From assembly GCA_038065835.1 (NCBI GenBank), contig JBBTQB010000007.1:1-51420 (forward strand): DNA of 51,420 nucleotides, in the 5' to 3' direction. The notes below the pieces were generated by a model. It did not search any database and was not told where the DNA came from. It saw only the letters and a program-made list of their open reading frames with translations. Both the position numbers and the translations under genes were made by a program. The DNA comes from Patescibacteria group bacterium (GTDB lineage: Bacteria > Patescibacteriota > Minisyncoccia > Minisyncoccales > Staskawiczbacteraceae). Shown here piece by piece: positions 21,899-24,687 of this stretch (within the stretch, counting starts at the first letter, position 1; each line of letters begins with the position of its first letter).

Positions 21899-23503
21899 TT
21901 ATAATTTTAGATACTTCTCTAAAAGTGGCACTTTGACGTTCTTTAATCTATCAAGTCCGAAGGGTAGTAGGCATAAAAGGGCTAAAAATGCCGGCATTCT
22001 AATTCTAGTTATCATGCCAAAATTATTTATGTAAAGAGACAAAACTCCAAAAATAAGAAGACTGAAAATAATTAAAGGCAAGATAACTTTGTAATTTACT
22101 TTTATGGATTTTAGCATACCCTTTATAATAAAGAATAGCAGAAAATACCAGGGGATTACTTCTGGCAAAACAAAAAGGTGTTTGGCTTTTTTTAACTGCC
22201 AGGGGAAGGGACCCAAAATAGAGTAAACAAAAGATAAGGAATTGCTTTTAAGAAATGAAATGGGATTGTCAAAACCAGCATCTATTACAATTGAGGAATC
22301 TTGAGCTATTGTACTTTTACCCTCTGGCAGAGGTATGGTTTCTTCTGCTTTTTTGGTTTCTTGAAGCTGAGATTTTGGGGGATAAGCTAGTTCTCTATAA
22401 CCAACAATTGTTTGGGGATTTAAAAAATTTTTAATAGCTTTTACACCCATATATCCTTGAGTAGCTCCGTCTAATGGAGCAATTCTCGGCAAAAAACCAA
22501 GAAGAAGAATCATTATAATTCCATAAATAACTCTTTTTTTAATTCTTAAATCACAAAAGCTAAACCAACAAATTATGAAACTTAAAATAAGTGCATAACC
22601 AATATAAAAACGGAAATGGGTCACTCCAGCCAACACAATATAGAAAATCAAAAAATTTAACCAGGAGAATTTTTTAATTATCTTTAAGGTCAACAACAAC
22701 CCAATAACGCTCAGTAAAACAACTAAAGCATCTTTTAATAACAAACTTCCGTAGAACGCCAAAGAGGGGTAAAAACAAACAATTAATCCCACAATGAAAC
22801 CTTCTTTTTTTGAACGACCTATTTGACAAACCAATAAAAAAACAAATACGGCTATGAGGGCAACTATCCAAGCGTTAAGCAACTGACCCATCAGCATGCT
22901 GGGAACTGTTAGAAGATAAACATAACCAATAGCAAGCGGATAGTAGTGGACCAGCGGCAAACCTAAGAATGGTAAACCTTCTAAAGAAAAATTTCCCGCA
23001 GAAACTCTTTTTGATATTTCTAGTGCAATTGCATGATATTCATTGAAATCTCCCCTTCCCTCACTGAATGGTTGAAAATCTGCATAATATACAAAAACAA
23101 CCATTACGATATGAATCAAAAAAACAATTAAAAAGAGTAGGGTTAAAAACTTTACCGTTTCCCCGCCCGCATCGCTATGCCAGCCTGCATTACCTGCGTT
23201 ATTATGTCTGGCAGGCGAAGCATTGCGGGCAGGCTTTTCTTTTACCCAGTTAGAAAGCTCTGCTTCTTTTTTCTCTTTTTCTAAAAAAGGACTATTGTTT
23301 GTTAAAATATTGCCCTTTCTAACGGGGTTTATTGTGTTAATAAAAAATAAAGCAATAGAAGATAAAAAAACAACAAATATAGCTCCTACAGCCAAATCTT
23401 TGTCAATCAAGGAAAGCAAAGCTAATATAATACAGATTAATATAACTTTATGATACCTTGAAAATGATTCTAAAAAATCCACCTCGTTAGAAGTTATGGG
23501 CAA
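21899..23503 (-). CDS. Polytopic membrane protein, GT-C-like (ArnT/PMT-type) or glycan polymerase/ligase; N-terminus built from repeats
   Basis: 534-aa ORF with at least 9 hydrophobic helices. An acidic loop GDFNEYH follows the helix FLTLLFLIVFLIHIVMVVFVYY. The first ~125 codons overlap three repeat copies, so the start is uncertain (TTG 23503 or GTG 23482). Confidence 0.4.
   Translation of the reverse strand: MPITSNEVDFLESFSRYHKVILICIILALLSLIDKDLAVGAIFVVFLSSIALFFINTINPVRKGNILTNNSPFLEKEKKEAELSNWVKEKPARNASPARHNNAGNAGWHSDAGGETVKFLTLLFLIVFLIHIVMVVFVYYADFQPFSEGRGDFNEYHAIALEISKRVSAGNFSLEGLPFLGLPLVHYYPLAIGYVYLLTVPSMLMGQLLNAWIVALIAVFVFLLVCQIGRSKKEGFIVGLIVCFYPSLAFYGSLLLKDALVVLLSVIGLLLTLKIIKKFSWLNFLIFYIVLAGVTHFRFYIGYALILSFIICWFSFCDLRIKKRVIYGIIMILLLGFLPRIAPLDGATQGYMGVKAIKNFLNPQTIVGYRELAYPPKSQLQETKKAEETIPLPEGKSTIAQDSSIVIDAGFDNPISFLKSNSLSFVYSILGPFPWQLKKAKHLFVLPEVIPWYFLLFFIIKGMLKSIKVNYKVILPLIIFSLLIFGVLSLYINNFGMITRIRMPAFLALLCLLPFGLDRLKNVKVPLLEKYLKL
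23161..23234. repeat. Family-C G+C-rich imperfect palindrome, intragenic
   Basis: GCCCGCA...TGCGGGC, TCGC/GCGA and GCCAG/CTGGC pairings. Shares the words GGCGAAG, GCGGGCAGGC and CCTGC with 8210-8268. Read in frame as ...ARNASPARHNNAGNAGWHSDAGGE... Confidence 0.7.
23244..23328. repeat. Family-B-type element, intragenic, opposite orientation
   Basis: Termini ACCCAGTTAGAAAG (23244-23257) and CTTTCTAACGGGGT (23315-23328), 13/14 complementary. Read in frame as NPVRKGNILTNNSPFLEKEKKEAELSNWV. Confidence 0.75.
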
Positions 23504-23670
23504 AATGTCATATGGGACATTTTGCTTACTCTTTGTTAATTTTTATTATTTACCTTATTTTAACCCATTGAAGTTTTAATTATCCTCATACAAACCCCGT
23601 TAGGGGTTTGTTTCTTTTGCATTTACCTTAAAACTCCTTGACCTCTAACGGGGCAAACTTCTAACGGAGT
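23481..23670. repeat. Family-B stop-to-start palindromic element (long copy 2)
   Basis: Termini ACCTCGTTAGAAGT (23481-23494) and ACTTCTAACGGAGT (23657-23670). Nested pair ACCCCGTTAGGGG (23594-23606) and ACCTCTAACGGGG (23641-23653). TGA of the upstream GT4 at 23671-23673 abuts it. High similarity to 33804-34027. Confidence 0.9.
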
Positions 23671-24687
23671 TCATCTTAAAACGTTATTGATTAAATCCAG
23701 CCATTCTTGGTTAAACCTTTCTATAGTAAAATCTTTGGCGTAATTATAACCTATCTGACCGATTTTTTTTCTTTCCTCTGAATTATTCAGTAAATATTCC
23801 ACCTTCTGTTTTAATTCCTTAAAATCGGTGCAAATTATCTGTCCCCCATTCTCCAATAACTCTCTCATTCCACCCATTCCAGAACCAATTGTAGGCACTT
23901 TCAAAAGCATTGCCTCATGAGTGGTCATAGACCAACCCTCTTTAAATTTAGACATCGTTACAACAACGGAAGATGCTTTCAGCAAGATTAAATAATTTTT
24001 ATAATCTAAATCAAGATTTAGCGTTGGGACTTCAACTTCTTTTCTGCCAGAGGTAACAAGATAAACATCTAAGTCTTTAAGCGCTTCATAAGCATCAACG
24101 ACACCTTTTGGTTTTTGACAGTTTCCAAGATATACTATCGGTTTTCCTTCTAACTTATATTTTTTCTTAAACTCTGAAACTTCTTCTGCTGTAATGTTAA
24201 AATTATTCATACTAAACCCGCAATAAATTTTGCAGACATTTTTGTATCCTTTCTCTAAAAAATAATTCTTCCAGTATTCAGATATTACAACAGTAGCATC
24301 TGCTCTTTTTACCTGAATGTAAAAAAAAGTTTTTTCTAATAAGGGTAACAGCAATCTTGGAATTAAACGAAACCCCGAAAAATCAATGTGAAAAATCAAA
24401 GTTAAGTTTTTGCCTCTTGTATTTTTTTTATTTAATGTGATTGTTGAATAAAAATCTCTTATCCAAAGGTCTTTTTTGCCTCTAAAAAACAAAAGCTTTA
24501 TAAAAGACTCTAAACTTTTAAGGTATCTGTTTTTAAAATAATTTGCCTCTAAATTTACGTACTCTACATCAAAAGTTCCAGATAAGGTGTTAATAACTTG
24601 ATTTTTGTAAATATTCCCCCCAGATCTTTTTGAAAAAATGTTAATCAAACCGATAGTTTCCATGATAGTTATACTGTTTCCCTCCAA
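23671..24687 (-). CDS. GT4-family glycosyltransferase
   Basis: 338 aa. C-terminal EGWSMTTHEAMLLKVPTIGSGMGGMRELLENG (E-x7-E). The true start may be ATG 24663 (METIGLINIF). Confidence 0.7.
   Translation of the reverse strand: MEGNSITIMETIGLINIFSKRSGGNIYKNQVINTLSGTFDVEYVNLEANYFKNRYLKSLESFIKLLFFRGKKDLWIRDFYSTITLNKKNTRGKNLTLIFHIDFSGFRLIPRLLLPLLEKTFFYIQVKRADATVVISEYWKNYFLEKGYKNVCKIYCGFSMNNFNITAEEVSEFKKKYKLEGKPIVYLGNCQKPKGVVDAYEALKDLDVYLVTSGRKEVEVPTLNLDLDYKNYLILLKASSVVVTMSKFKEGWSMTTHEAMLLKVPTIGSGMGGMRELLENGGQIICTDFKELKQKVEYLLNNSEERKKIGQIGYNYAKDFTIERFNQEWLDLINNVLR

Follow-up and report, generated by a model that had tools for sequence, protein, structure and literature searches.

In-frame repeats of two families in the N-terminal linker of a GT-C-like membrane protein gene from Patescibacteria

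RESULTS

A GT-C-like membrane protein gene carries two in-frame repeats

The stretch of DNA analyzed here, referred to as the window, is a whole contig of 51,420 nucleotides (nt) (JBBTQB010000007.1, abbreviated C7) from an ultra-small Patescibacteria group bacterium (GCA_038065835.1) whose genome comprises 692 kb in 68 contigs with 36.5% G+C. On its minus strand, a gene for a GT-C-like membrane protein contains two unrelated repeats: an 83-nt element of a family termed B (INS1) and a 72-nt block of a G+C-rich family termed C (INS2) (Table 1). A first-pass annotation had claimed that the two repeats lie back to back and are read in frame within the open reading frame (ORF), which is confirmed by the codon layout and by copy numbers far above chance. 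The loop segment that they encode is very probably the product of at least two, and probably three, separate landings of small non-coding mobile DNA in a linker of the GT-C-like protein.

Table 1. Features of the GT-C-like gene and of the spacer upstream of it (window positions; aa, amino acids)
Feature	Position	Strand	Evidence
PMT_2/GT-C-like membrane glycosyltransferase gene, 527 aa from GTG 23482-23480	21899..23482	-	ORF listing, source gene call, homolog ATG alignment
Third helix, corresponding to helix 1 of the GT-C core; the acidic external loop YADFQPFSEGRGDF comes next	23090..23146	-	tblastn, alignment, hydropathy
INS2, 72-nt family-C block, 24 codons (PARNASPARHNNAGNAGWHSDAGG); outer 36-nt element = 23216-23233 + 23162-23179	23162..23233	.	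Codon layout, consensus match, folding
Inner degenerate 36-nt family-C copy (CCTGCCAGACATAATAACGCAGGTAATGCAGGCTGG, PARHNNAGNAGW) in the center of the outer one	23180..23215	.	Arm matches, exact 18/18 split
Native codons AAA GAA AAG (KEK) left between the two insertions	23234..23242	-	Codon layout; KEK conserved in homologs
Target-site duplication copy 2, TTTA on + / TAAA on the coding strand	23241..23244	.	Flank comparison
INS1, 83-nt family-B element, 'AAAG' subfamily, CCCCGTTAGAAAG...CTTTCTAACTGGG on the coding strand	23245..23327	.	Termini, duplication, empty site in homologs
Target-site duplication copy 1, TTTA on + / TAAA on the coding strand	23328..23331	.	Single TAAA in homologs
Conserved pair of N-terminal transmembrane helices with a DKxLAVG turn between them (residues 13-48 in 527-aa numbering)	23339..23446	-	Alignment, hydropathy, dN/dS
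Composite family-B element of 188 nt that occupies the spacer from the GT1 gene to the GT-C-like gene	23482..23669	.	Termini, flanks TCCA/TTCA (coding strand, TGAA + TGGA)
Codons 1-7 of the 534-aa track (TTG..GAG), inside the terminus of the upstream family-B element	23483..23503	-	Absent from homologs
59-nt family-B core element nested in the 188-nt composite, duplication CAAA	23595-23653	.	Termini and flanks

The repeats occupy a linker that is short in homologs

In homologous proteins, which are affiliated with Patescibacteria/Candidate Phyla Radiation (CPR) as are the relatives searched, the segment between helices 2 and 3 reads ...FFINKI-KEK-ETIKFL..., a lysine-rich linker (NKIKEKETIK) of ~11 residues, as compared with a loop of 64 residues in the window protein. 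The window linker contains exactly 29 + 24 extra codons, placed at the boundaries of the two repeats with the native KEK codons between them: the window protein aligns as MDFLESFSRYHKVILI-CIILALLSLIDKDLAVGAIFVVFLSSIALFFINTI (29 residues) KEK (24 residues) ETVKFLTLLFLIVFLIH, and the homolog P0004 as MDFLESLSKYHKIIIVSSICLASLSFIDKFLAVGALFIVFLASVALFFINKI KEK ETIKFLSVLFLVIFLIH. The corresponding DNA of the empty site in contigs L013 and L014 is ...attaacaaaaTAAAagaaaaa/gagacgataaag..., i.e., aacaaaaTAAAagaaaaa/gagacgata, with a single TAAA, and that of the window is acaaTAAA(83 nt)TAAAagaaaag(72 nt)gaaacggta, or, with the ends of the inserts given, attaacacaaTAAA(CCCCGTTAGAAAG...CTTTCTAACTGGG)TAAAagaaaag(CCTGCCCGC...GCGGGCGGG)gaaacggtaaag. 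The INS1 site is empty in L013, in L014 and in more than 100 homolog proteins. Furthermore, the spacing from the DKxLAVG turn to the FQPFS motif is near-constant among 120 homologs, being longer only in the window protein, in P0009 and perhaps in P0053.

The suggestion of the first-pass annotation that the repeats build a cytoplasmic or loop segment is borne out by this layout, and the homologs, rather than presenting the repeat segment as conserved coding sequence, have the empty site instead. The linker is probably cytoplasmic, as judged from the positive-inside rule and from its position before the first helix of the GT-C core. The earlier estimate that ~60 of the first ~125 codons are repeat-derived becomes, on recounting from the GTG start, 53 of the 107 codons ahead of the third helix. 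The insert-encoded peptides include GNILTNNSPFLEK and HNNAGNAGWHSDAGGETVK; in the AlphaFold model, the predicted local distance difference test score (pLDDT) falls under 50 at residues 53-67 and 85-104, with one short helix placed at residues 65-81 within the inserts.

The inserts are not an assembly artefact, as an independent assembly is identical: a Logan contig from run ERR3858114 matches at 100% identity over 3151 nt, both inserts included, and its end falls within the upstream repeat, which is what a repeated element would produce. No known structured RNA was found by Rfam over positions 22800-23800 at E <= 1. An internal promoter or terminator splitting the gene was also considered and rejected, with no terminator-like site on the coding strand and promoter-like matches at the level of shuffled sequence. 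The closest full-length homolog, P0002 (L014:4037-4108, GCA_964368555.1), has a 24-codon (72-nt) insertion of its own, IICKAYNESRGRHIKINFHMPSLL, located after KYHK and ahead of the first helix; it includes an imperfect palindrome, GGCATATAAAAATTAATTTTCACATGCC, and may be another hairpin element.

The helices upstream of the repeats are real coding sequence

The reading frame could alternatively be over-extended, in which case the protein would start past the repeats, and these would belong to a leader or to a small gene upstream. In a tblastn search of 41 genomes (its own and 40 relatives, 18 of which were matched), the homolog matches begin at query residue 113-122, and at 118-122 in all but one, which corresponds to the third hydrophobic helix, where sequence homology to the relatives resumes; taken alone, this start would favor an over-extended ORF. 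The open frames of these tblastn homologs, however, all contain two further N-terminal helices and the conserved (F)DKxLAVG turn, and the helix pair with its short K-rich linker is common to the 16 aligned and the 120 inspected homologs. The 51 codons upstream of the inserts are collinear with the homologs, conserved and under purifying selection, with a ratio of non-synonymous to synonymous substitution rates (dN/dS) of 0.22-0.24 against two homologs. All close homologs share the N-terminal helices, and the N-terminus is therefore genuine coding sequence; the homolog alignment proposed earlier for locating the conserved first helix shows both helices kept in all full-length homologs.

The arrangement of codons points the same way. 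From position 23244 to the third helix there is no in-frame ATG, GTG or TTG; the first such codons, 129 and 134, lie inside that helix, and starts there would remove conserved residues. Both inserts keep the frame, which would be needless in a leader. A late start is compatible with the five family members P0028, P0030, P0043, P0045 and P0048, which begin just before the third helix without the N-terminal pair, and with the resemblance of CTTTCTAACTGG-GTA-AAA on the minus strand to the CTTCTAACGGG-GTG-AAA start motif of other genes. The possibility that CTTTCTAACTGG-GTA-AAA (23245-23247) is a decayed GTG start, with the ORF fused to a spacer, was ruled out by the conserved N-terminal helix pair. 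The downstream start that had been entertained in the first-pass annotation is not supported on these grounds, and we regard over-extension of the frame as extremely improbable.

INS1 is a family-B element with a target-site duplication

The element had been placed at 23244-23328; it stands, with its bounds refined to 23245-23327 and flanking copies of TTTA. Its terminal inverted repeats are complementary at 13 of 14 positions (CCCCGTTAGAAAG / CTTTCTAAC(G>T)GGG), and together with one TAAA copy it adds 83 + 4 = 87 nt, or 29 codons (NPVRKGNILTNNSPFLEKEKKEAELSNWV). INS1 is stop-free in only two of the six frames, one of which is the frame entered. Such termini and a duplicated TAAA are the hallmark of transposition, either cut-and-paste or copy-in, in which the target is cut with a 4-nt stagger.

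Both repeats belong to families whose copy numbers in the 692-kb genome exceed expectation, with 26 copies of CTAACGGGGT (0.5 expected) and 18 of GCGGGCAGGC (0.1 expected). Family-B termini are ~50-fold over-represented, at 26 copies, and the family-B core forms inverted pairs that bound stretches of 45-222 nt. Direct repeats of 3-5 nt (TTCA, TGAA, TATG, CTGG, CAAA, TTTA and others; TTCA/TGAA commonest) flank 10 of the 13 non-redundant pairs in this genome. Exact family-B pairs occur in only six of the 41 genomes searched; the interiors are unrelated, and the arms are complementary within each copy.

The terminal pair of the INS1 type (CCCCGTTAGAAAG, 40-70 nt, CTTTCTAACGGGG) is far more widespread. 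A scan of one genome per species for exact 13-nt termini found it at 120 loci at least, the listed ones belonging to Planctomycetota, Patescibacteria, Nitrospirota, Omnitrophota, Delta- and Gammaproteobacteria, Elusimicrobia and other phyla. A 4-5-nt duplication accompanies 84 of the 121 copies listed, and in 51 of those it is TAAA or TTTA. Among the listed copies, 14 lie in long ORFs, where they encode xPVRK...LSNGV or TPLE...FLTG; the length plus 4 is divisible by three in all 14, as compared with 58% overall. INS1, with NPVRK...LSNWV, a TAAA duplication and 83 nt, is a typical subfamily member on these criteria. Its interior has no significant similarity to the 121 listed same-terminus copies (best score within 1.3 standard deviations of the shuffle maximum). 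The idea that INS1 is itself a diverged 59-nt core element was rejected, as the interior is not similar to the 59-nt copies of L015 or of the window (p = 0.3-0.45). The INS1-type terminal pair was not found in the IMG/VR viral collection.

[quoted passage not shown] Integron attC sites have the core order RYYYAAC...GTTRRRY. An identity with attC was rejected for family B, in which the GTTAGAA/TTCTAAC cores are reversed relative to attC and the copies are dispersed beside housekeeping genes with target duplications.

INS2 consists of family-C sequence, probably nested

Family C comprises palindromes CCCGCCTGC...GCGGGCAGG of 27-75 nt, with dozens of copies in the genome. The G+C-rich repeat that had been assigned to 23161-23234 is upheld with refined bounds of 23162-23233; the single 74-nt imperfect palindrome described there is not, as the block looks like two nested 36-nt elements. 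When the outer halves of INS2 (18 + 18 nt) are joined, the resulting CCTGCCCGCAATGCTTCGCATAGCGATGCGGGCGGG is identical at 35 of 36 positions to the consensus CCTGCCCGCAATGCTTCGCATAGCGATGCAGGCGGG, a 36-mer that occurs exactly in three same-genus genomes; the joined halves are also near-identical to the copy in the pyrophosphatase gene of this genome. The arms of the inner copy, CCTGCCAGA...GCAGGCTGG, match the consensus at 7/9 and 8/9 positions, and we infer that this copy is a second family-C element lodged in the apex of the hairpin. Nesting of this kind also occurs in the 75 nt at C68:5436-5510, where a 36-nt copy lies in a 39-nt copy and the outer element is uninterrupted in the relative G018. 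RNA folding gives -25.2 kcal/mol for the outer 36-nt element alone and -37 kcal/mol for the whole INS2 block. At C19:2082-2098, 17 nt match the inner/outer junction of INS2 exactly (AATGCAGGCTGGCATA..), with NAGWH encoded in both places; this may be a solo arm, or a hint that the inner/outer boundary of INS2 is inexact.

Copies of family C with exact arms are present in only 10 of the 41 genomes searched, and identical 36-mers in several same-genus genomes. In this genome, ~20 copies lie in long ORFs, all with lengths that are multiples of three; ~13 of the 20 are in the PAR...AGG frame, though the 36-mer is open in five of its six frames. In 16 of 18 in-ORF copies an A precedes the element, and no target duplication was seen. 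In the H+-pyrophosphatase (H_PPase), which has an in-frame 36-nt copy, the Pfam profile is matched end to end across the insert, and an HtrA-like protease (Trypsin_2) domain with a family-C copy is exactly 12 residues longer than its profile. The protein of C68:3717-5588, presumably a histidine kinase as judged by eye, contains two in-frame family-C blocks, one of them the nested block at C68:5436-5510. In addition, the 1240-codon frame C29:32962-36681, which we take by eye to encode GyrA, has an in-frame 33-nt copy (PARSATGVAGG) near its C-terminal end and an apparent intein-like insert.

The subfamilies of 27, 30, 33, 36 and 39 nt are found both inside and outside genes. A 37-nt subfamily (CCCGCCTGCTTCTTTAATGCGAAGCATTTCGGGCAGG) occurs only outside long ORFs (C24:15058, C26:4284 and 4321, C28:5435, C68:5775). 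One exact 36-nt consensus is present on a predicted viral contig (L139:5081-5116, IMGVR_UViG_3300028581_001365). The genome has three Y1_Tnp-family matches, namely the IS200/RAYT-like genes (RAYT, REP-associated tyrosine transposase; REP, repetitive extragenic palindromic sequence) at C56:6326-6868, C21:5156-5959 and C1:14561-15271, with the HUH motif NHxHLLxKQ. Hairpins of the ACGAGGTCCGACCTCGT type flank them, and similar hairpins, GAGACCCGGCCTCGTTGACGAGACCGGGTCTC, form the sub-terminal part of long family-B composites.

The same linker is occupied in a second lineage

The protein P0009 (contig L015) reads ...FFISKI(NPVRGQGILGEIEKIQTSNGV)KEKETV(TPVVERRAFTTG)REF..., and its DNA is aaaaTAAA(59-nt family-B core element)TAAAagaaaaagaaacagta(36-nt palindrome of another family). 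This palindrome, ACCCCAGTAGTAGAACGCAGGGCGTTCACTACGGGG (TPVVERRAFTTG), belongs to a third family and lies 9 nt from the INS2 site. The L015 family-B element is similar to the 59-nt copies of the window (p < 0.0005) and not to INS1 (p = 0.3). The identical TAAA therefore carries a different family-B member in L015, and several points, given below, favor two independent hits. The loop contains only two TAAA sites and the subfamily prefers TAAA, so that such a coincidence is plausible.

A single ancient insertion at TAAA, with interiors that have since diverged, would account for the shared nucleotide position, duplication, orientation and frame (NPVR...), and would be compatible with an origin of the loop by mobile DNA. 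Synonymous divergence (dS) between the window and L015 lineages is ~1, near saturation, so the unrelated interiors alone are not decisive. Both arms, however, are of different subfamilies (AGAAAG/CTTTCT vs AGAGGT/ACCTCT), the L015 copy resembles other 59-nt copies in a way that INS1 does not, and near-perfect termini and duplications would not outlast a dS of ~1 if neutral. Moreover, the empty-site homolog L013 is no more distant from the window here than L015 is (79% vs 73% nucleotide identity). A single origin is unlikely on balance, and independent insertion is the reading that we carry forward.

In L015:948-2285, which encodes P0009 (ENA ERZ27245926), the third helix runs straight to ...LVCQVGRSKKEGF, so that ~90 residues including the acidic external loop are lost; this is likely a degenerate gene or a mis-assembly. 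P0009 is evidence for reuse of the site, not for functional tolerance. A small NUMOD3-like gene is located at L015:3445-3801.

Occupation of the loop in two lineages raises the question of co-option, in which the insert would serve as a longer cytoplasmic linker or interaction site, or as an mRNA hairpin ~35 codons past helix 2 that causes a translational pause. The different family-B element at the identical TAAA in L015 and the 36-nt palindrome close to the INS2 site could be explained in this way, as could the folding energy of the INS2 RNA and the predicted helicity of part of INS1. On the other hand, the loop is longer in only two or three of 120 homologs, reuse of the site is expected from the TAAA/TTTA preference of the subfamily with two TAAA sites in the loop, and the L015 gene looks degenerate. 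The insert peptides are of low confidence in the AlphaFold model, and no terminator- or promoter-like site rises above background on the coding strand. We find co-option very improbable; we see the new segment rather as selfish DNA that is tolerated and has passed the filter of selection, with no sign of an acquired function.

The host protein and its GT-C-like label

The host protein can reasonably be labelled GT-C-like, mainly on the basis of its homologs. Pfam PMT_2 is matched by 12 of the 16 aligned homologs (best 3.9e-8) and PMT by six of the 16, and the window protein is 55-75% identical over its full length to homologs from a large protein collection. The protein is polytopic, with ~10 or more hydrophobic segments by hydropathy. 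In a structural search against the PDB, 16 of the 18 top matches, including all of the top 16, are GT-C enzymes (PglB, STT3, Pmt1/2/4, DPY19), but the matches are weak; a profile search of PDB sequences with the window protein found nothing. The AlphaFold model has a mean pLDDT of 64 and a predicted template modeling score (pTM) of 0.68. Among the 16 aligned sequences, the window protein included, 120 columns are invariant, and the invariant D145 lies within the acidic loop after the first helix of the core. At ~22900-22925 (residues EGLPFLGLP, external loop), the window protein has five extra residues (GLPFL) relative to all 15 aligned homologs, which looks like a small local duplication rather than a repeat-family insertion.

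This conservation bears on whether the inserts, with their 53-residue loop, inactivated the gene, leaving a young pseudogene whose frame is open only from recency. The near-perfect terminal repeats and duplication are such that the insertions may be recent, P0009 combines inserts in the same loop with a large internal deletion, and a Pfam match is absent from the window protein, as opposed to 12 of its 16 homologs. By contrast, the invariant columns are by definition kept in the window protein, and its 527 codons are open in a genome of 36% G+C. INS1 is open in two of six frames only, with a length plus duplication that is a multiple of three. Both families are in frame in the H+-pyrophosphatase, HtrA and GyrA-like genes (the last by eye only), and the inner family-C copy is degenerate and hence not very recent. 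Inactivation is, in our assessment, quite improbable.

A family-B composite lies at the start of the gene

A gene for a GT1 glycosyltransferase lies upstream of the ORF and one for an NAD-dependent epimerase downstream, and this order of the three genes is the same around the homologs. In the homolog loci, the stop codon of the GT1 gene and the ATG of the GT-C gene are adjacent or overlapping, without the spacer of the window. The ORF track 21899-23503 (minus strand) counts 534 aa from a TTG, and the source gene call (P0001) 527 aa from GTG 23482. The ATG-GAT of the homologs aligns with GTG-GAT (codon 8) in the window, and the G of this GTG is the last base of the upstream composite, the TG being derived from the duplicated target. 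From these comparisons, translation most likely starts at the GTG at 23482, the alternative being the upstream TTG (codon 1). The family-B terminus reported earlier at codons 1-8 (CTTCTAACGAGGTG) is present; codons 1-7 are probably untranslated 5' leader made of element sequence. The upstream composite landed on the original ATG-GAT, and the start is now most likely a GTG composed of the terminal G and the duplicated TG.

The CTTCTAACGGG-GTG-AAA arrangement is also found ahead of other genes, e.g., an L31-like gene and, separately, at C7:33805. Family-B elements at 23482-23669, C7:33805-34026, C47:4634-4806, C48:14958-15119 and C66:472-603 lie on start/stop junctions and make new GTG starts. 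Landing on ATGAA(A) start or TGA stop junctions follows from the preference for TTCA/TGAA targets, and the second copy of the duplicated target is often the TGA of the upstream gene.

DISCUSSION

Our analysis indicates a loop assembled by successive insertions. An 83-nt family-B element evidently entered TAAA and duplicated it, and a 36-nt G+C-rich family-C quasi-palindrome evidently entered 9 nt downstream, in the PAR...AGG frame and without visible duplication; a second, now degenerate 36-nt family-C copy would then have entered the apex of the first. Each of the insertions has a length divisible by three and no stop codon, and therefore the reading frame and all downstream conserved residues are intact. 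As judged from this preservation of the frame, translation of the inserts would lengthen a variation-tolerant linker by 53 largely disordered residues.

Several observations weigh against this reconstruction. The family assignment of the host protein is weak: the window protein has no Pfam match at E <= 1, and the GT-C fold matches, obtained from a mediocre AlphaFold model, are weak as well (E >= 5e-3, template modeling (TM) score <= 0.39). Membership of INS1 in family B rests on its termini, duplication, length class and shared internal-hairpin layout, not on its interior. The nested third event is a model, the inner family-C copy being degenerate. As to the enzymes of mobility, no gene-carrying longer element was found between family-B ends in this genome, where copies of 437 and 465 nt are without a convincing ORF, and DDE_Tnp_1 is absent from it. 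No clear family-C or family-B arms are present within 400 nt of the three Y1_Tnp genes, apart from one isolated arm match with one mismatch. Finally, P0009, the only other lineage with elements in the loop, is probably degenerate, its catalytic external loop having been lost, and the window gene is thus the sole basis for tolerance by a working enzyme.

The closest analogue of the inserts is the Rickettsia palindromic elements (RPEs; Ogata et al. 2000), described in a review (PMC10969869) as selfish palindromes that are read through where they lie in protein-coding genes; the likeness would be one of process, not of membership. In more general terms, the process matches that of intragenic MITEs. 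As far as that summary goes, both are palindromic, non-coding repeat families of small A+T-rich genomes that insert in frame in unrelated protein genes, are read through as peptide (which is inferred here from the frame), encode a recurrent family peptide (PAR..AGG and xPVRK..LSNGV in the present case) and occupy fold-compatible positions such as loops. They are set apart by size and host: RPEs are given there as ~100-150 bp and known from Rickettsia, and the present elements are of 36 and ~60-95 nt in Patescibacteria. Further differences from RPEs are the occurrence of INS1-type termini across many phyla, the clear 4-nt duplication of family B and the nested copies of family C.

Bacterial MITEs with target-site duplications include Correia/NEMIS of Neisseria, ERIC and RUP (reviewed in PMC10969869). 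Family B shares with them the terminal inverted repeats and fixed-length duplication, the small, non-coding, dispersed and patchy copies with empty sites, and insertion at gene boundaries, where new start or stop codons arise. It differs in that no parent insertion sequence with the same ends was found in this genome, in that the interiors are unrelated, with only ~9-13 nt of termini shared and sub-terminal arms complementary per copy, and in its cross-phylum distribution.

REPs are by definition extragenic and are mobilized by RAYT (Y1 HUH) transposases. Family C resembles the REP/REPIN-RAYT system (REPIN, REP doublet forming a hairpin) in its 27-39-nt G+C-rich imperfect palindrome with asymmetric mismatches, the lack of a duplication and the dozens of copies, and the genome encodes three Y1_Tnp-family proteins. 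Unlike REPs, ~20 family-C copies lie inside long ORFs; the copies are single, tandem or nested, with no inverted doublets seen; and neither family C nor family B borders any of the three Y1_Tnp genes. Family C is outside the REP/REPIN definition, being intragenic, without doublets and without a flanked RAYT gene. The G+C-rich palindromic clusters of yeast and other fungal mitochondria are likewise short hairpins in an A+T-rich genome that are occasionally in frame in a coding gene; these are organellar and eukaryotic, with a different sequence and presumably a different mechanism.

On a broader scale, it is conceivable, though we put this forward only tentatively and at somewhat less than even chances, that families B and C are cross-phylum, extremely small hairpin-ended mobile elements without a recognized transposase, which routinely rebuild loops and start codons in reduced genomes, and that the linker between helices 2 and 3 is a recurrent landing pad hit independently in different lineages. 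On this view, family B is characterized by ends CCCCGTTAG.., a 4-nt duplication and a TAAA/TTCA target, and family C by a 27-39-nt CCTGCCCGC..GCAGGCGGG palindrome; the literature searched on palindromic, MITE and in-frame elements in CPR/Patescibacteria holds no description of either family. If true, an RPE-like process would operate far beyond Rickettsia.

The present case would be one of loop growth from ~11 to 64 residues by three landings of selfish DNA, with the empty site kept in relatives and the target re-used elsewhere. It explains the disagreement of gene callers on this gene (534, 527 and 506 aa), and may explain the missed Pfam family and the GTG start. Together with the in-frame copies in the H+-pyrophosphatase, HtrA, histidine kinase and GyrA-like genes (the last two assigned by eye), it suggests that Patescibacteria proteins may contain many 'odd' low-complexity segments which are scars of mobile elements rather than lineage-specific functional motifs.

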